A stretch of 61,146 bases of DNA, the filler included, from Hausera hauseri (Eukaryota), in NCBI GenBank assembly GCA_046269625.1. It is 9 parts of 9 records of this genome, joined end to end, with 100 filler letters (N's around TTAATTAATTAA, not from the genome) between each part and the next. Parts side by side here need not be neighbours in the genome. Positions count along the whole stretch, not along the records: positions 30,845 to 38,981 come from JBJURY010754319.1; 8 more parts are not named here. One strand, written 5' to 3'. The notes under the pieces were generated by a model. That model did no database searches and had not been told where the DNA came from. It saw nothing but the letters and a program-made list of their open reading frames with translations. This document shows positions 26,079-58,579 of the stretch, one piece after another; position 1 is the first letter of the stretch, and every line of letters starts with the position of its first letter. The translations under genes were made by a program, and so were the position numbers.

Positions 26079-29000
26079 ATGGCGCAGAAACACGAGGAGC
26101 AGAATTGCCACCGTGTAATGCAACATTATTTTGGGTACCAGCACAATAGGACTAAATACTATGTGTGTCTTGCACGTGAGGTAGTGTTCCGGACCGGTTA
26201 CGAGGAATTTTACAACCAACATAAACAGCATGTGAATTCATTCACAAAATCGAAGGAAGAAATATTCAACAGTAATATGTCAATGACAAGAAGTGTCCCA
26301 AAAGCAAATCAGATGTGCGGTTCCTATGCTTATTGCACATCCAAAACACATAATTCGTAACAGTGTCATAAAACGATGCAGCGGTATTATGGATACAAAT
26401 CCAAAAGTATCCAATATTATATGTGTTCCAGATATGAGACTGTATGCGGTGCAGATTACATACAGGTCTATTATGATCAAAAACAACATTTGAGTCACTT
26501 CGCATCAAAATCAAAGCAGGCCATTTATAATGAGCAACATAATACTAATGCATCTGCTTCGCAGTATGATGCTTCGCAGTATTCTGCCTCGCATTATGCA
26601 GCTGGATCTGGTGCAGCAGCTGCAAAACATATTAGAGAATTGAAACGCGCAACTGCATTATGCGCAGCAGCATCAGGCACGGCCACATCAGATGCACCGG
26701 CCCCATCAAAGGCCAAAGACAGCGGTCAGTTGATGCGGCAGCATTAAAGAGAAAATGCCGCAGATATGTTATTGATGCAACTGGTCAAACAACCCTCCAA
26801 GACTTCCTCTTATACACAAAGGACAAGACAGAGGGGATTCTCCAGGACAACATAACGGAGCTCAAAGCCCTTAAGGTGAATTTGAGACTGGAGGCTGCAT
26901 GCATCAATGTTAATGGCGAAGAATCCAATAGGGCCTTCAAGACCAAAAATAGGCCCATTTTTGAAGCCACCAATAGAGCAGAATGGCTGCATGAAGAGCA
27001 TGTGAAGCTGATCCGTGAAGCCGGGGAGAGCTAGGATAAGGAGAGCGGATGGACTCTTGTAACCATCAAGAGATTGCTTGTGTATGTTCACAAGTACTCT
27101 CCAATGCGGGGACGTTCCTATATTCAGCTTCCGGAATGGATCGCTAATAAAAAATCATGCATCAATGTTCTTAATGATGACAACAAGCTTTTTCCATTTC
27201 AGTGACGATGAGGCCGTGAACAAGCTTGCAGAGCACAAAATGCACTGCAACAACAATTATTGTATCAGGCCAGAATTTCCCAAAGAGAACTACACTGAAT
27301 TCAAGGAGTTCGAGAAGAAGATCAAGGTCCCAATAGTTATCTATAGCGACTTTGAAGCTATCCTGCGTTCAGTTCAGAGTTGCAATCCCAATCCCCAACA
27401 TAGCAGCACAACGGCATACCAATATCATGAACTCTCATCGTATTGCATGTATGCCAATGGACTGGGCAGTAAACCATTTCTATTCAGGGGTTCAGGCACA
27501 GCAGCTTATTTCAATAAACGACTTGAAGATATGGCTCATAGGCTTGGCGATATGCAGCAGCAGCATAAAGATACAATGAGCATGTCGAAGAAGCAAGGAG
27601 AAAAATGGTCCAAGGCAACAGCATGTTACTTGTGCGACAAATCATTCACCAAGGAAAGTTGGAAAGTCAAAGATCACTGCCATTTTACAGGCAAATATCG
27701 TGGCGCAGCATGCAACAACTGCAATCATCGCTGCAAAACATGCGCATATGTGTCTGTAGTGTTTCACAACCTCAGTGGCTATGATTCCCATTTCATAATC
27801 CGAGAATTAGGCAACATTGATGGTAATATAGATGTGATCTCCAACAGTGAAGAGAAATATATCACATTTAAGAAGCATGTTGGTAAAATCCGACTTCGTT
27901 TCATAGACAGCTTTCGTTTCATGTCGTCATCATTGAATAGTTTAGTGAAGAACCTCTCTGCATAAGAACTCAAGGAGACGAAGCGATTTTTCCCCATTAA
28001 CTTTGACCTTGTCAAGAGGATAGGCGTGTTTTCTTATGACTATATAACTTCATGGGAAACACTGGATGAGACCTCATTGCCGGCAAAGAAGGACTTTTAC
28101 AATATACTCTGATTGTCATATTAGTGATGCTGACTACCATTATTCTCAGAACGTCTGACATGCATTCCAATGCCGAAAATGAGGGAAATAGTGATATTTA
28201 CCTCAAGACGGACGTGTTGCTGCTGACAGACGTCTTTGAAAGTTTCAGGGATGTTACAATGAAGAGTCATGCATTGGATTCGGCTTATTTCTTTACAGCT
28301 CCAGGTATGAGTTGGTCAGCAATGCTGCGCTATACAGGTATTAAGTTGCAGATCATTAAGGATTATGATATGATCCTTATGATCGAGAGAGACATTAGAG
28401 GTGGAATATGCCAAGCCATTCATCGGTATAGCGAGGCCAACAACAAGTATATAGCTAAATACTACTCAACAAAGGAATCCTCATATATATAAATATATAT
28501 ATATATCATACTTGGTGCCAACAATTTGTATGGATAGGCAGTGAGCACCCCATCGCCATATGATAACTTCAAATGGGTCGAGAATCCTGAAAACATCCCT
28601 ATACAAAAACTAAATTCCCCTGGAGATACGGGATACACACTGGAGGTAGATATGGAACATCTAGCTTAGATACACGCAAGGCATCAACAGCTGCCTTTCC
28701 TCCTTGAGAGAAGGCCTCCGCTCCATGGAAAGCAGAGAAAGCTGCTCTGTCATCTGGGTAATAGAAAAGGTATGTAATCTAATACATCAATCTCCAGCAG
28801 GCTGTTAGACGTGGACTTTGTATTACTAAGATCCATAGATCCCTGTAGTTCAACCAATCCATGTGGCTGTAGTCATACATAGACCTCGGTATAAAGCTAA
28901 GGGCTAATGCCTAGAACGACATTGAGAAATATCAATTCAAAATATATAATAACAGCGTTTTTCGGCAAGACCATGGAGAATATCCGCAATTTGATCAACA

Positions 29001-30640
29001 TCGAACTGGTCTCTGAGTGGAAGCGAGCAAAGAAGCCCATTGCCAAGCCTAACGTCCACAGCAGCACCATATATACTGAGAACTTGGTAGGCACCTATAA
29101 GGATCCACATTACAAAAAATACTATTAACAAAATTATAAAATAACAATAGACAACATCACAGATTCGGTCAAAATAAAACATATCAAAAACAAATAAAAA
29201 TCACGGATTCGGTAAACATCAAAAATTTTGCCCATACGAAACAACATAAAAACATACCAATTAAAAAGCAAAAAGGAGATTGCAAGTGCTGGGGCAATCA
29301 GCACTTGTAGCCAACAAAAAATCACTAAACAAATTCTGTCGATTTAAACTCGTTTGTTTAAGTCCACAGTTTAAAGTCAGTTGATAGTTTTTCTAAAAAA
29401 GAAAAAAGAAACATTCACAGACCAAAATGCCAGAAATCACTAGAATCGGGAGTCAGAAAAGGAATGCATTGACCAACGGTGATGGAACCCAAAGGAATGA
29501 ATTGACCAGCGGCAGCGACAAGAAGAAAATGCCTTCCATGACCAGCAGCTACGATGGAAAGCAAATGTGTACTATCAAGGCACCGAAACCTGGGGAACCC
29601 ATCTCCAAGGAAGGTGCAAAGGCCACACTAGTCGGCATCGCCATCTCCGAAAGGAATATGCGGCACGTTCCGAATTACCGGATCCCTAAACGACCCCAAC
29701 CAGATTTGGCAACGATGCAAGACCTAGATGCCAGTCAAGCCTCGACATTCAAGCCAGACCAGCCGTGCCTGACCCGATGAGATACCGTCTCCCGCGAAAG
29801 ACAACGCCGCAACACCGGCAAGCAAGCCCCGTACCGGTCCTAGTCGGATTTTATGACGGTACGGGAGCTGCTGCAACGGAGCCGCTTCATACGACACCTA
29901 GTCAGGTTGGGGCTGGATGACCCCTACTCTTTACCCGTGAGAACACTCCATCGGTTCTATGAGGACGGGTAAAATCGACATCTCTTCGACTCGTCGGTTT
30001 TCCTGCCGGTTTTCCTTAGATTGATGACGACAGCCAACCGCCTCTACTAATCCTTTGCTCCCTGAGAGCGTCAGTTTATTCCATATCGCCAAACCATCGA
30101 AGCATTACGGACACGGACGTCCAGCTCCAGCTCGGACGACATTCGAGCCCATCCACGACGACTTCGCAGACTCAGGTCGTCTTGATCCACTACCGAGGAT
30201 TCGTATGCCTCAGCAGACGGCGGTTGTCATGACAATAAACGTTGCGAAAATTATCCAATATTGTTCATTTATTTTCTTGTTTCCGTTTTGATTTATTGGT
30301 TTGGCGCCACGATGTTATGCGACAAAGTTAAGGCTTTCATCAAGGCAAAAATACCTAAAGCACCCATATGCTGAAAACAGCATTTGTATTCAACAAGCCC
30401 ATATTTGTGGGTATGGCAATATTGAATCTAACAAAAACCCTAATGTACAGATTTCATTGTGACATCATGGTCCCCAAGTTCAAGTCCATGCAGCTGATGT
30501 ATATGGATACTGATAGTTTCGTCTATCAGATCCATATAGAGGATATTTATGAGGACTTTGCCCAATTGGCTCAACACATGGATACTTAGGACTATCCAAA
30601 GGAACATTTCAACTATTCAATTGCCAACAAAAGGGTACTT
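26079..30640 (+). pseudogene. Polinton/Maverick/adintovirus-type protein-primed DNA polymerase B with endonuclease VII-like zinc domain, decayed and interrupted
   Basis: ESGWTL..KYSP.RG.SY; IYSDFEAIL; CYLC...KVKDHCHFTGKYRGAACNNCN; FHNLSGYDSHF; FIDSFRFMSSSL; YLKTDVLLLTDVFE; IRGG; ANNLYG; FGKTMENIR. Resumes after an insertion with NKPIFVGMAIL and YMDTDS. Confidence 0.9.
29096..30359. mobile_element. 1264-bp insertion with 5-bp TSD (probable solo LTR) within PolB
   Basis: GCACC is duplicated at 29091-29095 and 30360-30364. Removing the insert restores ENLVGT-HMLKTAFVFNKP. Termini TATAAGG...CCTAAA resemble mutated TG...CA LTR ends. Confidence 0.8.
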
Positions 30641-30844: not shown

Positions 30845-32250
30845 TATTCAAAATGCGCATATACCGGCAGTTCGAAATAGAATAAAGTATACAGAATCTT
30901 TAGAGCAAAAAGGATAGATAAAACAAGGGACGGCACTTGCAAAGGAGTGGATTACGACGTTGGAGGTACCATTGCGCCTAGAACGGTAGCTATAGAAGAT
31001 TATCAAATCCAATTGAAGGAATACGATGAATTATTTGACTCACAGACAAAATTAATGACAACGATGAGTGCGAATATAATAATGGCGAATGCGATACTGG
31101 AGAGTCAAAAATAACATGCCAGCTGACGTTACTGAAAGAAAAGAAATTTAACAAGACAGTAGGAAAAACAGCTGAGAAGGAAACAGCAACATATAAAGAA
31201 AGTACAAAGGAAGTTAAGATGACGGAAGTAGCTAAAATTGTATACTCGGAAAACTCAGAAGAAATGATGCGATTCAAAATCACTGGAGTAGTGAATAGGT
31301 GTAGTGAAGAAATGTCGAAAACTAACTATAAGGGTATTTTCTTATAATCAGAAGAAATACTTGGAGCAAAGACGAAAACAGATAAGAAAGGTATAAAGTT
31401 AACACAATATTTTGATAAGATTGATTTCCTAATAAACTATGTAAGAAAAGAGATTAGAGGTTTATACTGAGAGATTAATGAATGAATGTAAGCTAAATTA
31501 TGAAATAATACGAAATAAAATGGCCCTGATAATAACAAATCCAGATATGGTAGCGCCAGTAATGCCTTTTGGCGATGGAATTATTGGAAGAGTGATGGGT
31601 GAGGTATTAATAACTATAGAGTGCAAAAAGGCGGAAGAATCAATTAGACCAATGGAAGAATGATCAACGGAGTTCCACGTAGTTTATAACGCAGAACCAA
31701 GATGTGATGCCAGTGACAAGTATACTGTTAGACATCAATACGAAGCCCACGCTGTTATACAATTGTACTTTGAATATGTCACCAACGTTTAAAATAGACA
31801 ATGACAAATGGATCAGAATGCCAAAAAGAGAACCGGTATCTAAACAGGCGACATTAAGCTTGATTAATCTGCAATAGAATCAGAAATTTGAACCATTAAC
31901 AGGAATATCACAAAAAGGAATATATGCGCAACAGAATCTAGAAGATTATCGACGAATGTTGTTGTTTCCACAACAAAGACAACGAGTTATAACCGAACGA
32001 ACTAAGAGAGTAATGTGGGATGGAGAAGGATCACCACATTTGGAAAATTTGATGGGCAAGGATTACTTGAAAAAGGTAAAGTACGGCTTTCTAGCGATAT
32101 ATTTTATTATCAGCGCCATACGAACCGTATTCACCGCGCTTGGTGAGGCATATGGAATACATGCAGCAGTAGGCTGCTCATGGAAAATACTGATAGCAGT
32201 AATACATGCAGTATCAAGTTGCTTCCTGGCAAATCATGATGCCCAATGGA
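30845..32250 (+). pseudogene. Chuvirus/gB-like class III fusion glycoprotein (C-terminal part) of Ty3/Gypsy element A
   Basis: DGTCKGVDY, CEYNNGECDTG, ECKLNYEIIRNKMALIITNP..GRVMGEVLITIECK, MPVTSILL, GIYAQQNLEDYRRMLLFP. TM region YGFLAIYFIISAIRTVF then AYGIHAAVGCSWKILIAV. This pattern matches chuvirus-type glycoproteins. Confidence 0.8.
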
Positions 32251-32639
32251 AAAAGAAGATACTACATAAGAAAGATGGAAGAGATTTTCTGTATAGTATG
32301 CTGGATGAAAAAAGCATCAGATACGATAAGGTAAATACGAAATTAAAGAACAACCGCATAACTAGAATTAAGCAGTTAGCACTGAAGTCAAAAAAACAGA
32401 AGTACAAACAAAGGTTGATAACTGATTTACCCCAACTTAATCCAGTAGATGAATACGACGGAAAACTATATAACGAGCAACTATTGGTAAATCCATCAGC
32501 TCCCCGATACGTTATGCATGCAGGACTGTACCCTATGCATCAAGTACAGCAGATGAAACAAAGTTTTGACGAAAACGTGACACCTTATAAGCATAAACCT
32601 CCGTATAAAATTCGAGATAAGAACGGACGACAAACACCC

Positions 32640-35600
32640 ATAAGGCCAGAAATAGAATAGAGGTAAATGGATATCTGCTGACAGCCTTATTAGATACAGG
32701 ATCTACAACAACGATTATGGGAAGAAGCCAATTACAAAAGGAACATAGAGGAAAATTAAAGAAACCAACAACTACGTTAGTAAATATAGGAGCATTCGGC
32801 ACGGAAGAAGAAATTAAGATGGTCCTAGATGCAGAGATTAAGATCGGTAAACAAGTCCTCAAGCACACCATAAGAATAGCAGAGAATCTGACTAACGAAA
32901 TTTTAATTGGGTGCGATATATTAAACCAATTAGAAAATGTTTACATAGATGTGAGGACAGGCCAACTTAAAGACTTCATTGGAAATCAAAATGAAGGAAC
33001 AGTCGCATTAATCAAGGATATTATAATTCCATCACGTTCTGAGATAGTGGTGCCCGGAAAAATAGAAAGTTCTTTATTACCTGAAGTCGTTCACTTCGAA
33101 CCATATCCACAAGTTATGGAAAAGTACGAGATATTAGTTGTTCCTCATGCAGGTAGAAAAAGGAATGGAAAAATCCACTTAATAATTTGTAATATGGCAA
33201 ACAAAGAAAAGATTACGAAAGAATACTAGATTAGGAAAAGTAACGACTATAGAAGAAGTAATGGAAGATGTGGACAAAATAAAAAAAATGGTAGAGAAGC
33301 TAAAGAAACAGACAGAGACAAAGAAAGAATTAAGACTACCAATATTAACTGAAAGGAGAGACTACAAAAATACGAAATTTTAACAAAAGAAGAAAGGAAG
33401 ATGTTAATAAAATTGCTAGAAAGAAATAACAGTCAATTTACACAAAATGACTATAATTTGGAAACAATGAATATCATTCAACATACCATTAAGTTAAAGA
33501 AGGGACACGATAAACCCATAGAGAAAAGGCCATATCGATTGGCATATGACAAAAAGCAGGAAGCGCGAAAGATAATAAAAGAAATGAGAGAAAATAAGAT
33601 AATACGACCAAGTTGCTCCCCGTGGACAGCCCCAGTAATGATGGTCAAGAAAAAGGACGGGACTATGAGATTCTGCATAGATTATAGAGCACTGAACGAA
33701 ATAACGGAAACAGATACATATCCGTTACCACGAATCGACAAAATACTAGACAAGTTGCACGGATCAACAATATTTAGGACTATTGATTTACAGAAAGGCT
33801 ACTGGTAAGTAGAAGTGAAGGAAGAAGATAAACCAAAGACAGCTTTTTCGATATAAGAAGGATTATGGGAATTTAACAGAATGCCATTTGGATTAAAGAA
33901 TGGGCCGCCAACATTTCAGAGAGGGGCAGAACTCTTAGTATTAGATGCCCCGCATGCGATGGTATATATCGATGACTTAATAATATCACCCCCAAATTTT
34001 CAACGGCATCTAAATGATTTACAGGATCTCTCTGACAGATGCAAAATAATGGGCCTAAAGATAAATCCAAAGAAATGTTCATTTGCTCAGGCGGAAGTAG
34101 ATTTCCTTGCATATCTGGTTGATAAACATGATGTCAAACCTCAAAATAAACTTTTAGGAAAAATAAGAGACTTTCCAAAACCAGGTACAGTTAAAGGATT
34201 ACGTCGGTTATTAGGTCTGACGAACTACTATCGAAGATTCATAAAGGACTTCAGCAAAATTGCTAAACCTTTATATGAACTATTGCGGTAAGACCTAGAA
34301 AAAGTATTGTGGACAAACGAGTGCCAAAAAGCTTTTGAATATTTGAAGCATAAACTATTAACTTCTCCAATATTGATCTATCCTGATATGACCAAACCAT
34401 TTATATCAGCAACCGACGCAAGTGATTACGGAGTAGGGGCAGTATTATCACAAAAGGACGAAAAAGGAAAGAAACATCCAGTGGCCTATGCCTAAAAAAA
34501 CTCAATAAACATCAAAAAAATATGCCGTGACTGAAAAGGAACTATTGGCAGTAATATTCGCCTAGGAGGTATTCTCGTCATATATTAGCGAAAATAAACC
34601 TCTTTTAATCTATACCGATAATAGACCGCTCCAGTGGTTAAAACAACACTAGAATCCAAATAGTAGACTGCTACAATTGGCGTTAAAGTTACAGCCTTAT
34701 ACATTGAATTTCCAGTATAAACCGGGATCACGTAATGCAAATGCGGATTACTTATCCAGAATGCCCACAAAATCAGAAACAGACAAAGCAGTAGTGGTAG
34801 CAGTTTGGAGTATGGATGGATCAGCAGAGAAAATTATGGCTAACCAGAATGAAGACATGGAAATAAAAGCCATTAGAAAGTACATAAAGGACAAAACTGT
34901 ACCGACTGATAAAGAATTAGCCCGCCATGTGGCCCGATTCAGTGAAGCTTACGAAGAAAAAGAAGGATTTTCATACTTTATTCATCAGAACGGACCGGCC
35001 TTAGTTATTCCAAAGAAAAACAGAGCAGTTCTGTTAACCCAATACCATGGCGGATTGCTCGGGGACACCAATCAGCAAATAAGACAATTAATAAATTGAA
35101 ACGAAAATATTACTAGCCAACAATAACAAAAGACGTACAGGAATGGTGCGATAGTTGTAAATTATGAGCCACCAGAAAGAACATGAGATAAAAAATACAA
35201 AGACGCTCTCAAAGTATGGGACAACCCCCGGCACCATTTGAGTTCACCGCAATAGATATAACGGGACCATTACCGTTGACACGGAACGGAAATAGATACC
35301 TTTTAGTTTTTATCGACTATTACACTCGTTCTGTTGTCGCTCTACCGATGGCTGATATGAAAGCAGATACAATCGCTGAAAAATTTGTAGAAAACATAGT
35401 ATTCAACTATGGAGCTCCGAGAATCCTCATAACCGATCAAGCATCAAATTTAACAGGGACAGTAATGCAATTTATTTATGATATCTTGAAGACATGAAAA
35501 CTACGATCCACACCCGGACATCCTGAAAACAATGGGATGGTCGAGAAATATATTGGAGACTTAAAAGGAAAATTACAGATGGTGCTAAACACAAAGAGGA

Positions 35601-36060
35601 TGACTGGGATGAATACATCAACGCATATGTTTTTCTAAATCTAACATCGGTTCATGAGTCTACTAAAGAGACCCCTTTAATTTAATGTATTTCAAAGATG
35701 CAAGATTAACAATTGATTTAGATTTTAATGTGAAACCAACATCACATTTAATGGAGGTAGAGGAATACAAGCAATTAATGCAGGAACGCCTCCAATTAGC
35801 ATACAAAACAATTGGAAACAACCAAAAGGACTACAAATTAAAGTATAAAAAGTATTATTATTAAGACTAATCAGCCTAAAATGAAAATAGGTGACCAGGT
35901 GATGTTACCCTCGCCGTCAGTCAAAAAGGGTAGGACATCTAAGTTGGATAGACCATATAAATTAACTTATGAAGTAGAGAAAGTGGACCTACCGAATATC
36001 TGTTTGAAGAAAAATAATACTTCCCTTAAAGTCCACGTTAATAGATGCAAACCCGCTGCT
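32640..36060 (+). mobile_element. pol: Ty3/Gypsy pol of element A: protease, RT, RNase H, integrase (decayed)
   Basis: LLDTG (32693-32701); [24 protein letters not shown]; MPFGLKN; YIDD (33965-33976); ATDASDYGVGAVLSQ; NANADYLSR; AIDITGPLP; ITDQAS; NGMVE; GPY/F-like tail VHVNRCKP. The order PR-RT-RH-IN is diagnostic of Ty3/Gypsy. Confidence 0.96.
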
Positions 36061-36159
36061 AAGGAAAATGAATTAAGAAAAGGTGAAAGAGAGTTAGTAC
36101 AAAGCATTAGTGAGAAAGTAGTCAATGTAGACTCAACATGTAGACCTCGCCAGATAAAA

Positions 36160-37480
36160 CACGGTCTATTACTAATTATCATCATACTACTTCCGGGTGT
36201 TCTAGGACAGATATCTAACCAGGAAATCGAACAGGCAGAAATAAGACATGCAACGGCTATAAAAGAAGACCTGCTGATGAAAAATTTGCAGTATAGTATA
36301 ACATATTCAAGGAAAGGGCCAAAAAGTATGATCTGGAGTACTTCGATACAATTGCTCCCAGAATATTTGATAGGGATACAGGTGATACCCTGAGGCGATA
36401 ACAGAAGAGACCCAAATAAATGACAGTATGCCTGCCTAGTCCATCCATGGATCAATAAAACAATGTGTAATAGAAAACTCGGGAATTCACAATATATATT
36501 TCACTTTTATTAAGGAGAGGAGATTATGTTAGAAGTCAGTACACCAAACTTTATAAAACCATAAAAATTTCCACAAGACAGCAAATGAACGAAACATTAT
36601 TATATGAAATTATACTTAGCCAAGTGATTGCAAGATCAATGGGATTTAAAAGTGGAAGAAATTGTATTGAAATCATAACGATGATAGAGTTAGAATGCAT
36701 ACGATGGATAACCATAGTGATAAGAGAAACCATGACTCAGACGACGATAAAATGTAGAATTACGGATGAACAACAACGAGTTTGTTGTAATGTGACACGA
36801 GGAAAAATATACAGTGTTAACTATATCCTATCTCGAAAAGAATATTGACAATTATTAAATAGCTTAAAAAGCGAAGGACAAACAATGTATATACGCTATA
36901 AAAATTAACAAGAGTATGACGAAATACATAACGAAATACAAGAAAAGGTCACGACACTGGCTGTGCACTCTTCGGCTGACAGAAAGGAGATGATTATTTT
37001 AATTAAGCCATATGCTTCTTATTACCGTCAGAGACGCTCTATATCGGATAATGTAACATTCATGTCAGCCCCTATTGCACTAATCATTTCTACAAAACCA
37101 GATTTCGACTTCGTTAAAGTAAAATTTAGTTGTAAGAAACGGGATACAATAGTTGCAAAAGGTGTCGTAACTCCTGATGATCTGATTGTCCCATGTGCGG
37201 CTTTAAATCTTAATACAAGGTATACGGTCTTTTTACAGTTACTCGATGGTAATGATAAGATAACGTCCACTAAAGTAATATCAACGCTTAAAAAAGGAGA
37301 AAGGAACATAGAAGTACCATACGAAACAATAACCAGTAACAATAGAGTACGTTATATAAACACTCCCGCCTAGAGATAAGAATTATTGGTTCAATAGTTT
37401 CAGTAGTAGCTATAGTGACGGTGGTAATAGTGATCAAGGTAATACGAGTACTACGCAAGAGTAGACGGAGCTCGGTCTGA
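36160..37480 (+). pseudogene. Second putative type-I membrane protein of element A, downstream of integrase
   Basis: Signal-peptide-like HGLLLIIIILLPGVLG|Q in frame with the integrase tail; Cys-containing ectodomain; RQRR at 37026-37037; TM IIGSIVSVVAIVTVVIVI (37382-37435) followed by basic KVIRVLRKSRR. Frameshifted. Confidence 0.6.
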
Positions 37481-37886
37481 ATTAACCTGCGTGATCTAAC
37501 GAACCCGTTAGATATGACTAACCCCAGATGACAATTAATGAGAAGAACTGCAACTGGTGCAGTCCTGAAGTCAGAGATAACCACACGTCATCTGGTTAAC
37601 GCCCTCTATAACTTTTGTTTAAATAAAGTCACAACGATTACCAAAGTGGTTTATATGATAACCGTTGTGTTATATTTAAGTATTACGATTTTCCAACTAT
37701 TGACTATATTCTTTACAGTATCAGCCACCACCTTCCATCAGGTACAAACATTGGTACAGTAATGCCAAAAACCATGTCATTAACACCAACCCAACGATTC
37801 AATATTACGTCTCACATAACGATTATATGACCAGTCTTAATTATCCACAAACCCAATAAATCCCAAATAATTTAAAAGGCTATAGT

Positions 37887-38708
37887 ATGGCCAACCGTTC
37901 TCTTGCCCTCCTACAAATCACGAAAGCCACATCTTTCTTTTTGGCAGATATATTAATCTTACCAGAACGATTCCACTCAGTCAATTTTTATTGTATCCTG
38001 TGTCAATTTCAAACAAAGGCAACAAATATAAAGACATCTGTAGGAGATCTAATTAATTTGGATTTCGAACATGGTCTTACATTTGATCATTCGTTTCTAC
38101 AGAGTAACATTTTCAAAATTAGATCTAGTACGAATCGAGTGATCCTTGTCACTGAAGTGATTAAACACGAAAAATGCTTCAACTTACCTGAACTTGATTA
38201 TATCAAATATAAAAGTATACCTTTCCTCAGACTGGATAAGATAACAGATGATATGGTCATAGCGGCTGTCAATCTGGCCTATGACCAGTGGAATCAACTC
38301 CAGCATATTGAAGCATCGATCATGAATTTGCATGGTGACACTCTATTACATGGAATAATAACTCCCAGACAACAAATAAACAATTTTGATACACACATAA
38401 CCGGCCTCACAGAAGGGAACATTAACAACCAACTGGATCCAATAGATTTCTATCGAAAAGTAACTGAAATCATCACGGATAAAGTACTGATCGCAGCCGA
38501 CCTCATTGAAATGGTTGTGAACCATTTTAAATGCCCTATCAGGTGGATAGTCGGAGTTCGTGATATATTATATCACGAAGAGGTTATCCACAAGTACCAA
38601 TTATCGATAGGTATTTTCAAAGAGCTTGCACGCAAGTTTTATAAAACGAAAGGATTCTCTCTTCGCAGCACTGCTCTAGTACAATGCTATCAAGCTATCT
38701 ATAGGTAG
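37887..38708 (+). CDS. Unknown 273-aa ORF, probably accessory cargo of element A
   Basis: Long open frame co-oriented with pol. Coding-like sequence continues past the stop to about 38910. No motif recognised. Confidence 0.5.
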   Translation: MANRSLALLQITKATSFFLADILILPERFHSVNFYCILCQFQTKATNIKTSVGDLINLDFEHGLTFDHSFLQSNIFKIRSSTNRVILVTEVIKHEKCFNLPELDYIKYKSIPFLRLDKITDDMVIAAVNLAYDQWNQLQHIEASIMNLHGDTLLHGIITPRQQINNFDTHITGLTEGNINNQLDPIDFYRKVTEIITDKVLIAADLIEMVVNHFKCPIRWIVGVRDILYHEEVIHKYQLSIGIFKELARKFYKTKGFSLRSTALVQCYQAIYR

Positions 38709-39419
38709 ATTAAATGGACAGACGAATTAATAACTCAAAGTACGGCCTCCGACAGGGTGCGAACAGCACCAACCACATCACAGTGTGGTAGGATGAGAAA
38801 GCTCCAAGTTGAAGAAACAATTTTAGTGGACGATGAAATCTATGAACTAGAAGCCATGCGATACAGATCCTGTACTACTGACAAATTCATTCACATGCCC
38901 CTGTCTCTTAATAAATAAATTGAGACATTTTCTTCGATTCCCCTTCGACTGTGAATGTTGTGAAATTTTAAATACTTTAAANNNNNNNNNNNNNNNNNNN
39001 NNNNNNNNNNNNNNNNNNNNNNNNNTTAATTAATTAANNNNNNNNNNNNNNNNNNNNNNNNNNNNNNNNNNNNNNNNNNNNTAAATATTAAAAGTGTGAT
39101 TTGATTTTGGAATTTCTGAAAATTTGTTTCAAAATCAGTATTTTGAGATATAATAAAATTTTTCAACAACTGGTGTTAACTTTTCAATGATTAACTACAA
39201 ACGATCCAATTCTGCTTCTGCGGACGTACCAGAAGCGGGGATTTCCCAACCCTCCTCAAGCTAGGCGACGATGTGGACGGTGTGGATGCGCACTCAGCCA
39301 ACATGAATAAAGCAGTTTTGTCTCTCCAACATACTCAAGGATAAGGATGCAATTATTTCTCGTTCCTTCATAAATGAATTTTCGTAATCAGTAAATCATT
39401 TTTGTCCACTAGAGAAGTT

Positions 39420-43486: not shown

Positions 43487-43804
43487 NNNNNNNNNNNNNN
43501 NNNNNNNNNNNNNNNNNNNNNNNNNNNNNNTTAATTAATTAANNNNNNNNNNNNNNNNNNNNNNNNNNNNNNNNNNNNNNNNNNNNTATGTGTGTATCAT
43601 TTTTTCTACCCCATGACTCATACGCGAACCAAAAATAATTTTCTTCCCCGGGAGGGAGGGGGGCTTGAAGCCATGTGCTCACATCTACCTATTTGGGTAG
43701 TGTACATAAACCCAACTTCCTTCCAGATCGTGCGGTTTTGCTTTTTTGTCGTACTGCTTTTTAAATCGTTCTTGATATTCTCGGGATAACTCTTTAGCAA
43801 CTTC

Positions 43805-46630
43805 TCAACGCCTCTGTAACCCTATCTGTAACACGTCTAAGAAATTTTGTTGTAAATCTTTATGATTAATCGTGTAGGGTGTCATTTCTAAATCTGTCGG
43901 TAATATGGCTTCTCGTGCATACATCATGAAAAATGGTGTGAATCCCGTTGCAGGATGTGGTGCCGTATTAATAACGAATTGAGTTCCTTCAAAGAATTCA
44001 TCCCAATCCTTTTGGTCTTTTGCGACTACTGTTGACAGAATATGTATAACAGTTGAGCTCATACGCTCCATTATTCCATTACATTGGGGATGGTATGCGG
44101 TTGTAGTTAATCGTTCGATTTCGAATATTTTGGTTATTTTATCAAATAGTTTGCTTGAAAAGTTTCTTTCACCTTTTTCCGTTTGATTGCGCACACTTTA
44201 CAAGCACTTACCCAATTTTTTACATCAGTGTAAATACTCGACCAATAATATTTTTTCAGTATTCTTTCTTGTATCTTTTTCCAAGACATGTGTCCAACTA
44301 AGTATGAATCGTGTTCTGCCATTAAAACTTCTGTTCTTAATAATTTTGGAATGACTGTCAGTTTTTGCCCTTTACGTTCATAATATAAAATATCTTCGTG
44401 ACCCTTATCACTCGAAACACACTGAGTCTTTGCAAATGTTTCTTTAGCTGATGTCCTTTGGTATTATATCTTTCTCAGCAAATCTAGTAATCTGAATGAC
44501 TCTATCTTTTTGCTGTTCTGTCGAAATTTTAATTGGTTTTTCCAATGTTAAAGCGCGTTGTCCATCTACTAACTCTTCGAGTTGAGTTTTCTTCACTGTA
44601 GTAATTTCACTCGTTTTAGTTCTTAATCGCGATAATGCTTCAGCATCTACGTGTTTACTTCCAGGTTTATATTGAAATTCAGTGTTACAACTAGAGATCT
44701 CTTCGGCCCATCTGTTGAGTCCACATGTAGGATTATTTGTACGCCTTTTCAAAGTTGTAACCGCTTTGTAATCAATAACGATTATAATTTTCTGTCCGTA
44801 AACATAGACGTTAAAGCGTCGTAACGTTTCTTTTACGGCCAGTGTTTCTAATTCTGCAATCGAGTAGTTCTTCTCAGCTTTCTTTAACGAACATCCTACA
44901 TAAGCGATTGGGTGTCCTATTCTTCATCTTTCCGCTTTTGAAGTAATTCTTATCTAATACCTTCTTTACTAGCGTCCGTTTTAATTATAAATGGAAAACT
45001 AAAATCTGAATATCCTAAGACTGGTTCGCTGGTCAAAATGTTCTTTATTTCATCGAAAGCCTTCTGTTTGACATCAGTCCATTTCCATACAATTCCTTTC
45101 TTAAGCAGAAGATATAACGGTGCATTTATTTTTGACTTATCTGGCACATAGGTGGCGTAATATCCACACAAGCCTAACCTCCTGGTTTTGTGGCTCCATA
45201 CAATCTGATATTTTATTCAACAATGACTTATCGGGTCTTGATCTTCTCAGGTAGGATACTGTACTTTGAGCCACTTGCATTTCTTAGGGTTTAATTTCAA
45301 TCCTGCTTTCTCTAATCTTTTAAATGTTCTTCTTCTGTTCTCGACACTACAATTACATCGTCTAAATAGGCAAATGGATGATCGAGTGTCATTAACATTC
45401 TATTCATCATTCTTGTGAAAATGGCTGATCCAATTGTGGTACCGAACGGTATGACATTAAATTCATATACATTATCGTGCGTTTTAAACGTCGTTTTATA
45501 ACGCTGTTCGCCTTCAATTTCCATTTGTCAATATCCGGATGGTAAGTCCCAGTGATGAACCATTTTCCTACTGAGAGTCTATCTAAAGCTTCCTTTACGG
45601 ACGGCAACGGAAAAGAATCTTTCATCATTAGAGTGTTCAGTGCTCTATAATCGATGCAAAATCGATGTTTTGTAGTACCCTACTTTTTAACCATAAGTAT
45701 CGACGAATACCAAGATCTATAACTAGGTCTAATTATGTCGGCTTTAAGCATTCGTTTAATTTCTTTTGTTACTTTGGGTCTTAATGAATGCTGTGGAGGA
45801 TACCATTTCGGCATCTTCTGATCTTCGAGATCAATTTCCTCATTTGAACCAGGCTTTTTCTTAAGAGGAATTGTTAATCTTAGGGCTTTGGCTCTGCCAA
45901 TATCTTCTTCATTTTTGGCAATGATTGATTTACAGCTGCATAATAAGTCATAAAAGCTGCAATAAAATTTAAATAAAAATTTAGACTCAAGATGAGCCGG
46001 AAATTTCGGCGAAATTATAAGGCTTTCCTCAATAGTTATAGACGATGCGTTATTAGTATGGCCTAAAGTGGTATTAACGTATAGTTTAACGGTATTGGTG
46101 CGCTATTCGCTAATCTGATAGGCACACAGCCGGATGTAGTTAATACATTACTAAATACGACATTGGATTTAACGTTTCCTTAGCTCGAAATATTCTGGTT
46201 GATCATCGTCTTGGCGGATTTGTGCATATATCAAAATTTCTGTTCCAGGAGGAATCTCCTCGTCTACTGGAATCAATACTTCTCCATATTTCCTATTTTT
46301 GTACTTTTCACTCCTTTTATCGGTTCGAGTTCTATTAATTTATCAGCGTGCAAATCTACTGCCACATACGACAATTGTCTCAATAAGTCACACCTTAGTA
46401 CTACATCGTCGGTTTGTGGTGAAAAAATTGTCCCATAATGTAAACTTCTAGATTCCACTTGAACATCAGTCTCGACATCTGTCCAAAAGCTCCCATACAT
46501 CCAGGGTGTTTCATCGATGGAAGGTACAATTGTTCCCTTAACATCTGCAGTATTAAGTCAATTTTGATGTATGACGTCGATTAAGGCATAAACGTCCCAA
46601 TCTTCAATAATAACTTTAACAAAGGGTCTC
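43805..46630 (-). mobile_element. pol: Ty3/Gypsy pol of element B: protease, RT, RNase H, integrase (decayed)
   Basis: RPFVKVIIEDWDVYALID (46576-46629); FCIDYRALN; IPFG; YLDD (45357-45368); IKTDASKEG; HVDAEALSR; H2C2 zinc finger (GHMS...CKVC); TTAYHPQCNGIMER. Confidence 0.95.
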
Positions 46631-47329
46631 CTTCTATCACTGTCCCATAAGAATTCTATGCGATCTTTCGTTGTTTAATTGTTGATATTTTATAACCCTT
46701 AATTCTGATTTCTGCAGAGACAATTATGTTTTCAGTTAGTTGCTTCAATTTTCCATTGGGATATAGTTCGTTGTTTGCGACGTTTGAATTTTCCACTTCA
46801 TGGATTCTGATTAGTGCTTTACGATTATTTGTATGTGGCTCTAGATTTCGAAAAGTTTGCATTCTTTGATTTCCCCAGACTGTTGATTTGGTTTCTGTAT
46901 TTCGAGCTATTCATGCAGAATATAATACTTTGTGGTCATCCACTGACTGCCCGCGATAGGGTACAGAATTTTCTGCATTTTTATACATTTTCCGTAAAAC
47001 TCCATATTGTTTTGTTCCTTCGAAACTAAACGGTCTTCTATAGATTTCTGTTTGATACGAACTCATCTTCGTAGATTGATATCGTAGGAGGCAAGATAAG
47101 TAGTGGTAGCATTATGACAGAATACGTTTTGTATCTATTTACTCTGGAGATGGCTTCTCCTCCCTTAGGCGCGTCATCATCCGAATCGTTTTTCTATGTT
47201 TTAGGTGTGAGGAATTTTCGTCTATATAAAAATATAGGTTTCCATCGTCGTTTTTGATTATTATAGTCAACATGTCGTTCTATATCAGTTTTCCACCTAT
47301 TTTCTTCATAAGCTTTCAGAAATTTTCCG

Positions 47330-49090
47330 AACGGTGTTATAATTGCAGTCAAAATTTTGCATGAAAATCCAGTTTATGACTTCTTGAATTACGGCTTTGC
47401 TTAACTATACCAGGAAATACATCGCTAAAATTCCAGATGCGGTTTATCCAAAAATTAAAAATTCACAAAAGTTTGTATTGTATTTCAGTAGTTACTGGTT
47501 GAAAATAGTTAGCACCAAGTAAAGATTCGCATTTTGCTTGGTAGCTAGTATCGTCTACTACTGCAGCCATGGCTTGATTTATTTCATGTGTTCGTTGATG
47601 TGGGAAGGCCAGAAAATGCCTAAACGCTTCTACTTTCCTAGGTCTATAAATACCTTTTGATGAACTATCTTGAAATTTGTCAACCGTTATACCTTTTACG
47701 AGATTGGTTCCTGTCAGTTTGTTCGGGGCAACAGTTATGCCTCCATTTGCTAAGCTTGCCCAATCCGTTTCACTACGTCTGAACACTGGTTCTTCTAAGC
47801 TCACTTTATATTCTTTTAAGGTTGTTGGCTGAGTTGAGTTAGCTAACAAGATTCTAGTAAGTGGCATAGCTAATCGAGTTGTATTTTAGCACAAAACCGG
47901 AAATTCTTTTATACAGCGTTTTTCTTCAAGATTAATTGGTACATCTCTTTTCTCACATTCACAGATTAACATGATGTCGCATTTGACTCGACCAAAAACT
48001 CCTTCTCACAATGGAATGATTGGTGATGCTAATTAGAGATTGGCATATATCTAAGCCATTTGGTTTCCATGATTTCCATATCTAGTTTACTGTCGTTCGA
48101 CATAATCTTGTGGTATAGTTCGGTTATTCCGACTTGTCCTTTGTAGTAGAAACAATCAACTCTATTTTTCAAGTAATCCTTCGTTTCCAACTTATTTCGG
48201 TTTCTACTATGAAGAATGCTTCGTAATTGGTGGTATACATCACTACTTGGAAACGACAGAGCATTTATTTCTTTACAAATATTGATCCATGAGGGTCAGA
48301 GATTAATATAGTTGGTGTAGAGTGTTCCGCCACATCTTTTCATGTCCTCGAGCTGCTATCTAACTTATTTACATATTGCTTACCAGTAGTTTCATTGAAC
48401 TTTAGCTCCTTAATTTTAATAAAATTGCAGTCTTTTCCAGAGGGCGGTTCCCATATTATAACTGAACTTCTGAAAGTACAAGTACTGTCCTGTAAATGAC
48501 ATTTTTTGTTTTCGGTATATAGTTTGGTGACGCTATGATACATTGACTTCTGTGTTGACATTTCGTTTTCACAGAAATCTACAACTACCACACATCTTCC
48601 TTTTCCTTTTCCGGTGTCATATTCTTAGCCACTGCAATATCCAATATGCATATCTAGTTTTCCTACTGCTACTTTAAATGATCGAACTATTTTCCTTTGT
48701 GGCATTTCGAGTTCCATACCGTCCCATCTGAATCTGCCGGTTTCTTTGGCTACTTGCATTGTTGTCTTTCTAGATGTTGTCTTTCAATGTTGTCGGTGGT
48801 GTTGTGGGTTTTATTATTGATGAGTGACAATGCATTTGTCCGCTATGAAAAATTCTACGAGATCTTCGTAACGTACACTCTAATCCATCCAATAATATTA
48901 ATTCTCGATGTTGGTATAGGATGTAGCTTTTCTCCTTTGTCTCTAATTTGTGCGGTCTAGCGTCTTCACACATTTCTAGGTCCATTAGGGAGTACTTCTG
49001 GCCAAGCTTAAATTTGTCGCAATCGTAAACCGTGACAGCACTTATTGTTTTATTAGCATCATCAAGGTTAGGAAAATAATTAACAAATTC
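47330..49090 (-). pseudogene. Chuvirus/gB-like class III fusion glycoprotein of Ty3/Gypsy element B
   Basis: Frameshifted signal peptide LLIIFLTLMMLI then ISA|VTVYDCDKFKLGQKYSLMDLEMC..YILYQ..GLECTLRRSRRIFH.GQMH.HSS; CHLQDSTC...IIWEPP...C; EGVFGRVKCDIMLICEC..CIKEFPV..MPLTRIL; KGIY...FLAFP. Confidence 0.82.
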
Positions 49091-49099
49091 GATTTACTT

Positions 49100-51477
49100 C
49101 CTCGGTTACTACCGGCTTATATCAAATTTCATACTATATCTTCGAGTCTGCTACTACTATTACTAGTGGATAGTCTGTTTTAGTATTCTTCTTTTTCAAA
49201 TTGTTTTGACAAAATTATTTCTCGAAGTAGTTTCCTGGCTGCCTTTTATGATAAACTCGTAGCTCTGTCAAATTCGTTTTCACGATTTGGGTTTATCTTA
49301 ATAGCTAAGTATAGAAAACCTTCTACGGTATTTTCTACCATGATTTTTTCAATCACCATTTCATCGGTTAATGTGCTTTTTGATAATCTAAAACGATAAT
49401 TTCTCATCATTCTGGCTGCACTATATATAACATTCTCTTTATCGTCTAACCCATCGCCACGGAGACTGGAGTAATTTACGATACGTATTAAATACTTCAT
49501 TGGTTCAATTAATTCTTCGTTATCCGCATTGAAAGTGGATATTGACATTTGTCTTAATTATCTAATCAAGTCTCCATCATAGTAGATTCCTTGTCGTATT
49601 TTCCTCGGTCTATCAACAGGCGTTTCTGCCCTGCTGTCATCGATACAGCTTTACTTTGGGGTGCTAAGTTTTTATCGTATTGTTCCTTATCTTTATTGGT
49701 TGCAAGTATTGGAAGTGCACTGCAGTATCTCGGACTCCTATGATTTGTCCTAGGCATTAGTCGGCTTTAGTCTTTCTCGTGGCTTCTTCTTTATATTGTT
49801 GATGAGCAGCTTTTGCCGCTATTCGATTTGTGTCATCAGAGATAATCCCAACGTTTATTAATTATTCTAATTCGTCCAATATTCTGCTTCTAAAATAAAG
49901 TCTATATTTTAGTTCGTTTCCATCACCATTGTTTATTAGTAATTGTCTTACGTCCCTCACTCAGTAATGCATTCTTTTTCATTCATTTACTCAGATGACG
50001 TCTTCATTTTCAACGTCACTTCAGGTTTAGCTTTTCAGATTTTAGCATATTTTATTAGAAGTTTTGGCACAGCACTATAATTGTGTTTCCACTCTACAAT
50101 TTAGTCTGAGTAGGAATAAGTTGTCTTAACCTATTTTCAGTGATATTTACGTTAATTAGCTCAATTAAATTCTTTTCAGTTAGAGCTGAATCCAGAAGCA
50201 TCACCACATTGAATTTCCGATTCTTTGGGTGCATTTCCGTTTCATACAGAAGTTCTGGATTTTTCGGATTTTCGGCAATTATGGCATCGATATATGCATT
50301 CTATTCTGTGTCATTTTGATTTTTCGGAAGTCCATGGTCAATAGGGATCTTTGGTTGCTGGACTATATTAGCATTTTGTATCATTTCTCTCATGCTGCGT
50401 AACATTTGTTGCACTTGACCATTTATGTCGTTTGAAACAAAGTCCGTTGCCAGAAACTTGGTGCAACAAAGTTAACAATTAACAAAGTTCGTCTACCTGA
50501 ATCATTCCTTTTTGTAGATAATCGGTTAGCTCAGAGGTTTTATCTCGCTGCCATCTTTGTACGAATTCTGCTTTATTGGCTATTTCCGATTCCGTGCGAG
50601 CGTATTTATTTTTATATGCGTTCAATTCTGTAGTTAGTTCATCTCTTTTTGCTCTTCTTTGGTCAGTACAAATTGGTGTTTTGTGAATGCGACGTATTAG
50701 AATTTGCAATTGTCGCATTTTCTCATCGTTGATTTCCGCTATTTCTACTAATAACGACGTTAATCCGCTCAATTCTTTTAAATTCCTGGAGTTAGAATTA
50801 ATTTATTCAATTAATTTTTATGAAACTAGTTTTCTCGAAAGTAATTCGGCGATCTTCCATTATCTCTATTAATTCAGCATGCCATTTTTGATCTGATCCT
50901 GGAATCCATTTATGAGGGTTCTGTAGAAATTTCAGTACTCCTTCTATTGACAGTTCACAATCCGTGCAGATGTGTAATAGTTTTATTTCTTGGATAGAGA
51001 TTTCGTTTATAGTTTTGTGGCTAATTGTTGAACTTCTAAATGGACATTTCTTAATTTCGAATAGAGGTCACAAGTCATGTTTTGCTTTGTCTGAAAATCT
51101 GTTCCTTCAATAATTTTATTTATTTCGTTCATTAATACCATCTCTTTGTTCTTATCCATAATTTTTAGTTGTTGTAGTGTATTGAATTGCGTCCGGATAT
51201 CTACTTCCGCTCTCATTGTATCTACATTTCGTGAAAATTTTCCCAATTGTTGCTTCACTATCAGTTCGCTTTCTGGGAATTTTTTATGCAATTTTTCACT
51301 ACATGACTCAGCTCAGTATGAATTCGGATCATTCCTTTAGATGGTTAGCTATTACAGGCTTTACCAGTATTGCTCTGTCTAACGTTTATAAGCATCTTTT
51401 AATTTGTCGTCTGCACGTTTTACAAAACTCATAATCTGGTTGACATAGTTGAATTCGTCTTTGTACTAGTCAAATTC
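49100..51477 (-). pseudogene. Unknown, partly coiled-coil polyprotein region upstream of the glycoprotein in element B
   Basis: Co-oriented broken ORFs 49246-49548, 49566-49757, 50479-50772 and 51007-51291. No gag or pol motif recognised. Confidence 0.5.
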
Positions 51478-54395: not shown

Positions 54396-55345
54396 ATGCC
54401 CCGAGTGAGGAGACACACTGGCGTATAACACTCGAAGTAAAGTTAACGCTAATATTACAAGTTCACGCACTGATTCAGCAAGGAGTAGTTCTGAACCAGA
54501 CGAAAACCCCCTGGTTGAAACAAACACTCACATAGAAAGAAATCCAACATGTTACTCTGAAATGGGAACTGGCTCAACTACAACTGGCACGATGGTCCTC
54601 CCAATGGATAAGTTTGAAGAAAAACCAAACCAAGATTATAGTGAGATTTTAATGCAATACCAAATGTATTCACAAAGTTTTGCATGGTTAGATGAGCTTA
54701 GGATACAACGTCTTTTCTTACATTTTAAAGGAACAGCACTTAGTGCTTATGCTCAGCTTACGGATAAAGGCAAAGCTGATTGGGCTAGACTTAAGGACGC
54801 CTTGGAAGAAAGACTCTTAGTAGACCCATCAGGAAAAGGTTGAATTGGAGTGTTTAACAGGCGACGTCAGAGGAAAGGTGAAAGCGTGCAAGAATACGCA
54901 TGTGCCCTTCAGAAATTGGCTTAAGGAGCCTATGCGGATGATGACATAAGAGACGACGCCCTTCTGGTTCAGTTTTGCTATGGAGTTACTAAGGAAATAC
55001 AAAATTATATTATTGTGGCAGATCATGACGCATATATAGAAGCTGTCAGTAAGGCCAGGAAGATAGAGTAGAACTATGAAAGATTAGAAAATACCAAAAA
55101 GCCTCCCAAAACTGATGATAAAAAGATGAAGAACCTTTAGTAAAAGAAAAATTTTCAAAAACCGTTTTATAAAATTCGGAATCAAACGGGAAAGCAACAG
55201 AAGAAGGTTAGGTGGCAACAAGATCAACCTCAAAAATCTGCAGTAAAGAAGCCAACGGTTAATCAGAATGGACAGCCAGTATACCTTGCATGCCAGAAAT
55301 ATGGACATATGGCTCGTACTTGCCCTAATCAAGGACAGTCAAGTT
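54396..55345 (+). mobile_element. gag: LTR-retroelement gag (capsid domain + zinc knuckle), decayed
   Basis: FKGTALSAYAQL...WARLKDALEERL; RRQRKGESVQEYACALQKLA; QFCYGV; knuckle (Y)LACQKYGHMARTCP at 55282-55323 with the first Cys mutated. Confidence 0.85.
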
Positions 55346-56700
55346 AAAAGAAAAAGAATGTTGACATCGTAGGAAATATATCTGATATGGATAATGAGCA
55401 CGAAACTACGGATACAAAGCCCGAGGAAACAATTGAAAAGCTACAGCAGAACATCAGATCTAAATTAAAATAAAGTAAAACCAATACGATAGAGGAGGAA
55501 TATAAGATAGCCGAATTAAAACAGTTGTACCTTGAATTGAAGGAGCAACAAACCTGTGAGAGAAGACAGAAAATGAATGATGAAAGTTCAGTTATTGCTC
55601 TTATTGGTAGACCCAAAAAGACTCCCTATCAAAATCAGATACTGAGAAGAAAAGGGTTAAGAAGGAGGATAAATCTCTGATACAAGAAGAAGAACTGAAG
55701 ACTCCAGAACTCAGTTTACCCTCTGGAAGTGAAAAGAATGAGTCAAGTGGAGAAAGCGAACCCAAAGGAAAGATAAAAAGAATCAGAAAAAAGAAAAGAA
55801 AAGAAAAGTCCTCAAGTTATGAGTCTTCATCTGTGGATTTAGACCAGGATGGCGTAGAAATAGTTCGGAAAATATCCAGCTATGCCAACCAAGAGCTAAT
55901 CGATGGCACTCGGTTTAGACAAGATTTGTCTATGTTGCTATCACCAACTATCAGCTATCAACAATTTGCTAATTTACTGGATTTGCTGTTAATGTATGCT
56001 GCGGGTACAAGCCCATATCAGAATATCGTACGATACATAATTTATCGGTATGCGGATAGAGTGAGGACAGTTGGAGAAAACCCTGAAGTAATGGTTACGC
56101 TACAACAGTATAACCAAGATTTTCACGTTTTAAGAATGAAGTCGTTAGATACGATAATGATATTGAAAAATAATATCAATGGGATTATCCAGCCTCGAGG
56201 AGAAAGAGTTGAGTTTTTATGGACGCACTCTGCTGGATTATGAAACTTTATATGAAGTAGGTATCTGGGAAAACCGATACAACCCTGTGTGTATTACTTA
56301 TAAACAGACTGAACAAGAAGTAATTGATGAAATTATTGCTGATGTTAGAAAAAAAGAAACATAAGAACTGGAACATTAATACCAGGCTCAACAAGTGGAG
56401 GTGGAAGCGAATATGCCTATATCAGAACAAATGCAAATGGATAAAAGAAACCGTGGCAGACCAAAAGGAACAACAAAACTTTATCATTTGAAAGGCAGGA
56501 AAGCCAGAGATGACGAAACTGTTCGAAGATTGCTAAGAACAGAAGACGAATATGATGTAGATAATGTATCATAAACAACATTACTACAAACCTTGTTGGC
56601 AAGAATGCACAATGCATTCGTTGAGTTTAATACTAATCTACAAATACCAGATTCATTAATGCAAGCTATAAGAAATGAGACCGCAAAGATTAGCAAACAA
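55346..56700 (+). pseudogene. Unknown coding region downstream of gag (not protease/RT)
   Basis: Purine-rich coding-like sequence with coiled-coil and basic tracts, and ORFs 55833-56243 and 56179-56364. No DTG/DSG motif found before the contig end. Confidence 0.5.
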
Positions 56701-57823: not shown

Positions 57824-58579
57824 GATGTAAATATGAAAAACAAAGCAAAAGGAAATGCGTGTATGTGATTTTTGATTTACGAAAGTTTCAATAATTGTGC
57901 AACTTAAAATAGTATGGTAGTTCCGTGACATATTTCTAAATTCGGCCACCTTAGAATATTTTACAAATTTTGAAGCTTTGTTCGCATACCACGAATTCAC
58001 AAGACTATCTATATGACACTTCATAAAATAAATATGCAAGATCAGCGTTTCCAAAATGTGGGTAACTGGACTCCCAGGAATCCACAGCCATATTTCTGGG
58101 GTTCACTGTCTGATTTTGCAATAAAAAATACCCAAGTAGTACAATAAACACCTTAATCTGTTTTTGCACGAACTTGTTATACGAATTATTATAAATATTT
58201 CATATTGCAAAATTATTGCAAACTTTGAATATATCAATTTTGCAACGTTTTGATGGTGTTTTTATAAATAAGTTAGTTGACTAAAAAATAAGGCAGTATT
58301 TGGTAAGTACGAAATTTTTGAAGCATTTTTACAATTGCTTGTCTTTATAGAACTATGAAGTGTTATTTAATTCCAAAATTACAAAAAAATTGGGAATCAA
58401 AGCCAAAGCGGTGAAACTTCATTAACAGGCCGAGATGGCAGTGATGAAAATGAGGACACCGTTGGAAATATTGCGACACCTTTAATGCTAGTCGGTACTG
58501 GCAGCAAGGGCAATAGTTTTTTCCATTAAACTTGATTATCAAGCTACGCATTATGCCAAGAAGAAGGTTTATCGACATA

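Follow-up and report, generated by a model that had tools for sequence, protein, structure and literature searches.

The window analysed here is a stretch of 61,146 nucleotides from the genome assembly of Hausera hauseri (GCA_046269625.1), in which contigs are joined via N+TTAATTAATTAA spacers. One of these contigs, at positions 30845-38981, is a decayed copy of a Ty3/gypsy retrotransposon in which a chuvirus-type envelope glycoprotein (env) stands ahead of the protease (PR), reverse transcriptase (RT), RNase H (RH) and integrase (IN). The assignment to Ty3/gypsy (Metaviridae) is given by the PR-RT-RH-IN order of the pol region and by the gypsy type of its RT and RNase H, as recognised with Pfam. 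The contig opens within the glycoprotein and covers neither gag nor the signal of env nor a possible 5' long terminal repeat (LTR); no LTR-like repeat of at least 40 nt was found along it. When aligned in 10 pieces with the related polyprotein P0035, the copy displays 14 in-frame stops along with 9 changes of frame, and its env, compared with the profile of its relatives, skips about 19 profile positions right before the membrane segment. The window copy is a dead element.

Envelope, protease and polymerase regions

The gB/chuvirus-G-type glycoprotein occupies 30845-32260 on the plus strand (as do all parts of this element), is truncated at its 5' side by the contig start and is interrupted by stops and frame changes. 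Three of the four env pieces scanned match PF24664 (Monjiviricetes_fusion) in colinear order: 30845-31111 corresponds to profile positions 148-197 (E 0.062), 31484-31720 to positions 337-407 (E 1.3e-6) and 31704-32657 to positions 413-604 (E 7.9e-15), while the piece at 31090-31485 gives no match to this family. All four are matched by the env profile of the relatives, with E values from 6e-12 to 7e-42, and the fragment closest to the window env, P0003, is 72% identical to it. Two hydrophobic segments are located at about 32088 and 32187.

As the window env is broken, a model was computed for the env of the relative P0005 (25-row alignment, predicted local distance difference test, pLDDT, 71.5). 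In a Foldseek comparison with the PDB, this model retrieves herpesvirus gB, with varicella-zoster virus gB at E 1.8e-13; the TM-scores are low (0.25-0.33), which would be expected of a monomer that adopts a different conformation. Against viral models, the same search returns chuvirus-like G and xinmovirus glycoproteins at E 5e-39. Furthermore, 14 cysteines are invariant among the env rows that cover them. When the env alignment was compared with the sequences of the PDB, the 60 matches listed were all proteases. The similarity to PF24664 in the window and the fold predicted from P0005 support a class III fusogen of the gB/chuvirus G-like type, as had been proposed in a preliminary description of this DNA, made from the sequence alone.

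Downstream of env, the open frame 31878-32660 starts in the C-terminal half of the glycoprotein, passes the two hydrophobic segments, continues through a linker and ends at RPEIE. The linker, at 32261-32645, is open over about 130 aa from the env membrane segment to the protease and is predicted to be cytosolic; the linkers of the relatives measure 50-309 aa. The retropepsin at 32646-32950 carries the LDTGS motif (RVP E 4e-8, gag-asp_proteas E 3.8e-8; tblastn with P0006 and P0028) and has a frame break within its first strand, the protease being read in the neighbouring frame from 32621. It is followed at 32990-33260 by a segment that aligns continuously with the relatives and lies at the position of the dUTPase-like domain of Burro elements, considered below, of which it is a possible counterpart; Pfam gives no match to 32990-33260. 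RT and RNase H, with stops, are located at 33644-34700 (RVT_1 E 2.5e-30, RT_RNaseH E 2.8e-14), and a broken integrase with zinc finger, core and C-terminal part at 35063-36066 (Integrase_H2C2 E 6e-10, rve E 4.4e-10; tblastn).

The single polyprotein in relatives

Related proteins were collected with HMMER, which gave 24 matches among the 1.84 billion representatives searched; a word-based search had missed the longer relatives (none for the env piece among 1,011 candidates). An alignment search (18 rows) added 6 env-bearing proteins, giving 30 representatives in all. The end of env is reached by 24 of the 30, and 16 of these 24 read on into at least one protease in the same open reading frame (ORF). 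In eight relatives, env to integrase is contained in one ORF. Gag or zinc-knuckle matches are observed ahead of env in P0016, P0010, P0034, P0036 and P0037, and in both P0034 and P0036 a single ORF extends from the Gag zinc knuckles to the last hydrophobic helix. These relatives support the suggestion of the preliminary description that the ancestor of the window copy encoded env-PR-RT-RH-IN as one polyprotein, and the contig, with no repeat of the length given above, shows no LTR between env and pol. The RT-RNase H region of the window copy is 49-52% identical to that of the relatives with env before PR, and its identity to six further gypsy rows does not exceed 37%.

Several retropepsin-like domains, from two to seven per polyprotein and all with D[TS]G, are found in P0004, P0010, P0012, P0030 and P0033-P0037; some of the repeated domains are located after the integrase, P0030 has seven, and the window copy has one. 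P0008, whose ORF comprises env, PR, RT, IN and a second membrane protein, is labelled as a protein of a Flavobacteriaceae metagenome-assembled genome, probably because retroelement DNA of an animal was sorted into a bacterial bin.

The second predicted membrane protein and its possible role

A second signal-like hydrophobic segment, recognised from reading frame and hydropathy, is located at 36163-36210 and shares the open frame 35842-36393 with the C-terminal part of the integrase. It precedes a broken, predicted ectodomain at 36211-37373 (AlphaFold, VIA and Foldseek), with a predicted fibronectin type III (FN3) domain at 37038-37310, and a predicted transmembrane helix at 37391-37435 (hydropathy 3.1) followed by basic residues. 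A comparable module, consisting of a signal-like segment, an ectodomain of 221-376 aa, a transmembrane segment and a tail, follows the integrase in seven of the eight full env-to-integrase relatives (P0008, P0012, P0028, P0030, P0033, P0034 and P0036). The motif C..L.P.[TS].[YH] is common to six of these seven modules, and the window copy fits it loosely; a Y-x(1-2)-PP tail motif is likewise present in six of the seven. Membrane topology was in all cases inferred from a hydropathy window.

The FN3 assignment comes from a model of the 91-residue domain of the window, predicted by AlphaFold as a beta-sandwich (pLDDT 68.7). With VIA, the model aligns with a fibronectin FN3 domain over 86 of the 91 residues (Z 9.0, root-mean-square deviation 2.7), and 27 chains, mostly FN3, are retrieved at Z of at least 8. 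The best Foldseek match is an FN3 domain of tenascin-X, at an E value of only 4.7e-3, and the lead of the Atlas for this domain is under 0.9. These comparisons point to an FN3 fold for the second ectodomain, as a prediction from a model. A possible first repeat at 36217-36560 was discarded, its score being reached by 143 of 500 shuffles.

Further downstream, at 37646-38906, a separate broken ORF combines an N-terminal hydrophobic segment with an ISG20/DEDDh-like exonuclease fold that lacks the Exo I D-x-E pair. It is 52% identical over 423 aa to P0002, which in turn resembles ISG20L2 (E 0.0026), and the Atlas describes it as RNase T-like (0.91). In both the window ORF and P0002, AVNLAYDQ stands just before the stretch that matches ISG20L2, at what is presumably the position of Exo I (a motif placed by eye), and the acidic D-x-E pair of an active DEDDh exonuclease is replaced there. 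One public run (run X1), which may be the window's own source, contains the stretch, and no RNA run was listed as containing it. In run X1, 16,642 contigs lie on the stretch at an identity of at least 80%, most of them below 95%, and all 30 bins are covered. The coverage in this run indicates multiple copies of the nuclease-like ORF; a single contig connects 35812 with 38271, and none spanning the whole stretch was found. A scan of metagenome contigs gave 235 pattern matches, none of which was confirmed. The nuclease-like ORF is likely to belong to the element as an accessory gene.

Taking these features together, the window copy is probably a decayed Ty3/gypsy element of the GAG-ENV-POL kind, similar to Burro. 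Its intact relatives read env-PR-RT-RH-IN in one frame, mostly with a second predicted membrane protein, and the polyprotein would likely be threaded twice through the membrane of the endoplasmic reticulum. In such a polyprotein, an internal signal after the Gag side would open the translocation of env, and the env membrane segment would halt the transfer, leaving env in the lumen and PR-RT-RH-IN in the cytosol. The second signal, past the integrase, would then bring the FN3 ectodomain into the lumen as far as the helix that follows it. Cuts would be made by signal peptidase on the lumen side and by the element's retropepsin or retropepsins on the cytosolic side. Gag, Env, Pol and the second surface protein would be made 1:1, without frameshift or splicing, and Pol would be held at the membrane by both ends until released by cleavage. 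The tethering of Pol to the env tail, put forward in the preliminary description, is a reasonable inference from the order of the domains, and would be only half of the arrangement, because Pol would be anchored at both ends.

Several observations weigh against this reading. Eight of the 24 representatives that reach the end of env terminate 2-74 aa past it, and four of these, with tails of 41-44 aa, may be true stand-alone envs. P0035 extends from env to integrase and ends without a second module. Env itself ends in two hydrophobic segments, which makes the number of membrane crossings ambiguous. In the RT tree, the rows with env before PR fall on one side of a branch with support of only 56/15; this tree comprises 18 rows with long branches, among which there are neither named references nor Burro1-4, and it does not place the element. 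As regards the second module, the Y-x-PP tail motif is not present in the window copy as read, the window ORF obtains 3.8 bits with a profile of the seven relatives' cores (a score reached by 21 of 500 shuffles), and the second-module profile did not detect the window copy in a six-frame search of the window. Pfam names no FN3 in any of the second ectodomains, and a Z of 9 for the window domain is not far above the best Z usually obtained (7-8). Furthermore, the alignment used for folding combined the window domain with one FN3-sized stretch from each of the seven relatives, cut manually around the shared motif, because whole-protein alignments placed the second module poorly.

With respect to function, herpes gB requires partner glycoproteins, and the FN3 protein is the favoured candidate for a partner of the gB-type fusogen in attachment or triggering. 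This assignment falls somewhat short of an even chance, and the same chance is given to an equal rival, in which the architecture stands and the FN3 protein is a captured host-modulating accessory (an adhesion decoy, a superinfection block or a trafficking signal), like the BCL2/BIR/MATH cargo of Burro, with no part in entry. Points in favour of the accessory role are that G proteins of the chuvirus type are not known to need a partner and that the second ectodomains diverge rapidly, with different numbers of repeats. Accessory domains inside the polyprotein are also a known feature of Burro (PMC6431247). In contrast to the variable cargo on the Gag side, however, the place, topology and tail motif of the second module are kept across distant RTs, and this second membrane protein would be co-translated 1:1 with Env.

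More tentative still is the general proposal that env-first gypsy elements are two-glycoprotein retroviruses, with a flavivirus-style polyprotein, a gB-type fusogen, a post-integrase FN3 attachment protein and Pol tethered at both ends. If this were true, the pairing of a fusogen with a receptor binder, so far a feature of herpes- and paramyxoviruses, would extend to retroelements. Nobody has shown how the gB-type envs of invertebrate retroelements find cells or are triggered by them, and the co-translated FN3 protein would be a concrete, testable candidate. Equal amounts of Gag, Env, Pol and attachment protein from one ORF would constitute a particle logic unlike that of retroviruses, and such elements occur in very large numbers in their host genomes.

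It is improbable that host DNA or an unrelated insertion accounts for the post-integrase region, with its FN3/transmembrane part and nuclease-like ORF, and that the resemblance to the relatives' module is one of topology alone. The weak profile score given above is consistent with such an origin, as are a shift in base composition near 37645, a 3' LTR that is not in view and the lack of a contig of run X1 across the whole stretch. Nevertheless, the second signal shares the frame of the integrase, the C-C-L-T-Y pattern aligns with the relatives, and in run X1 every one of the bins has a depth well beyond that of single records, with the contig from 35812 to 38271 as a link.

Even less likely is that env and pol are separate genes in the family of the window copy, joined by an occasional programmed frameshift, as gag and pol often are. 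The frame does change at the env/PR junction: residues 258-592 of P0006 align to 31710-32654 and residues 589-703 to 32654-32992, which places the change inside the first strand of the protease. The eight representatives ending shortly past env would fit separate genes, as would about half of the junction depth in run X1, which shows no difference in length. In favour of the single ORF, five contigs of that run, which sum to a depth of 434 of 879, have a junction of another length than the window copy. Moreover, the break sits within the protease domain, no slippery heptamer of the form XXXYYYZ was found in 32451-32700, 16 of the 24 representatives read through env into PR, and nine frame changes occur elsewhere in the window copy. 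Finally, that the glycoprotein stems from another element further upstream, or from an insert of chuvirus origin, and abuts a gypsy pol by chance, for which the start of the contig inside env with the 5' side out of view leaves room, is hardly credible, given that no LTR or repeat intervenes, the linker is open, the A-rich strand bias is the same across env and pol, a second element of the window has the same env-pol order, and the colinearity with single-ORF relatives largely refutes it.

Known elements with env before pol, and other sequences in the window

The layout with env before the enzymes is already known and catalogued. An env placed in frame between gag and pol was published in 2019 for the giant planarian gypsy elements Burro/GYPSM1 (Arkhipova and Yushenova 2019, PMC6431247), and GAG-ENV-POL elements with a gB-type env from Nematoda, Bryozoa and Platyhelminthes have been catalogued more recently (Chary and Hayashi 2026, eLife, PMC13524379). 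Consequently, the observation made in the preliminary description is confirmed and its reading as a fusogen within a polyprotein is supported, its suggestion of an undescribed lineage is not supported, and the second membrane protein and the nuclease-like ORF had been overlooked.

As far as the accessible text describes it, Burro shares with the present family an env in frame before PR within one polyprotein (as in the relatives; broken in the window copy), an env that matches mononegavirus-type fusion glycoproteins and an extra segment between PR and RT, which in Burro is a dUTPase-like domain (PMC6431247). Burro elements are further characterised by a length of over 30 kb, a triclad host and BCL2-like, BIR, MATH and ankyrin cargo. 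Features of Burro are also recognisable in individual relatives, namely a weak Bcl-2 match right before env in P0005 (E 9.6e-4) and ankyrin repeats in P0030. In contrast, that accessible text mentions no post-integrase signal/FN3/transmembrane module, no nuclease-like ORF and no repeated proteases (PMC6431247). The whole words "Burro" and "env" were not found in PMC8532177, and the accessible text of PMC11410931 contains a single mention of Burro.

The "errantiviruses" of Chary and Hayashi resemble the window element, in the portion of the article available, in having a Ty3/gypsy pol and a gB-type env upstream of it, with no LTR between; nine flatworm GAG-ENV-POL elements are listed there, six of them from Schmidtea mediterranea (PMC13524379). 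The env rows of Schmidtea, compared by eye, have cysteine-anchored motifs in common with the window copy (PMC13524379). Together with a TRAF-like gene on another contig, presumably planarian in appearance, this likeness would suit a free-living flatworm as the host. One of six short motifs from these rows was found among the relatives (P0036 family), with different flanks, and identity with any listed element was not established. The main text has no occurrence of "fibronectin", "FN3", "polyprotein", "Burro", "single ORF" or "fused" (PMC13524379). The catalogue requires intact ORFs, whereas the window copy is decayed; since this is a rule of inclusion and not a trait of the lineage, the window copy would not be in their list.

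For nematode elements, the available portion of PMC13524379 cites Sacco et al. 2022 (J Gen Virol 103:1739) on nematode endogenous retroviruses (NERV). The likeness, in so far as these sources describe it, consists of an env before pol in a metavirus and of an RNA-virus-type glycoprotein, and the hosts of NERV are nematodes. NERV, as described by Sacco and colleagues, reportedly has a "continuous gag-env-pro-pol ORF", with accessory ORFs that are said to encode a small protein or a helicase and not FN3. The Anakin elements, which Dezordi and colleagues reportedly described in 2020, are said to be BEL/Pao elements with a chuvirus glycoprotein of the same Pfam family as the window env, and to carry env downstream of pol. 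They differ from the window element in having a BEL/Pao rather than a Ty3/gypsy pol.

In bdelloid rotifers, LTR retrotransposons carry a DEDDy exonuclease in ORF3 (Rodriguez et al. 2017, PMC5408684). According to the accessible text, these elements resemble the present one in a 3'-5' exonuclease-family ORF and small transmembrane-bearing ORFs downstream of pol, and their dUTPase is located between PR and RT (PMC5408684). In contrast, the bdelloid ORF3 is of the DEDDy type with its catalytic residues kept (PMC5408684), whereas the window ORF is ISG20/DEDDh-like, has the Exo I pair replaced and contains an N-terminal hydrophobic segment. No FN3 module is mentioned in the literature on such elements that was covered; Grohme 2018, Sacco 2022, figures and Repbase reports were outside this coverage and may already show the module. 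The second in-frame membrane protein after the integrase thus appears to be an unreported addition to a known layout.

Other env-first elements are present in the window. A second, more decayed gypsy element of this kind, at 43587-51477 on the minus strand, shows a coiled region, a signal-like segment near 49080 and an env at about 49050-47400 (PF24664 E 9.4e-7) upstream of RT-RH-IN; its RT-RH is only 34% identical to that of the copy at 30845-38981. A third element of the env-first kind is represented at 54595-56243 on the plus strand by its Gag-like beginning, which retains a zinc-knuckle remnant and matches the N-termini of P0034, P0036, P0037 and P0011 (E 1e-13 to 2e-19).

The window also contains sequences of other kinds. 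A decayed protein-primed DNA polymerase B with an endonuclease VII-like zinc finger (PF03175, PF02945), which we take to be Polinton/adintovirus-like, is located at 26636-29100 and about 30300-30640, interrupted by unrelated sequence at about 29100-30300. The contig at 16798-24066 has a higher GC content and contains a hAT-type transposase and the RT tail of a long interspersed nuclear element, both presumably fish-like in appearance, and may be food, host or contaminant DNA. Positions 1-10701 hold an open frame of more than 3,566 aa, rich in coiled coils, with 87-nt tandem repeats at 6431-8741. A gene with RING and TRAF zinc fingers is found at 57251-58102 on the minus strand, and a divergent Hsp90/endoplasmin fragment at 59508-60620 on the plus strand.

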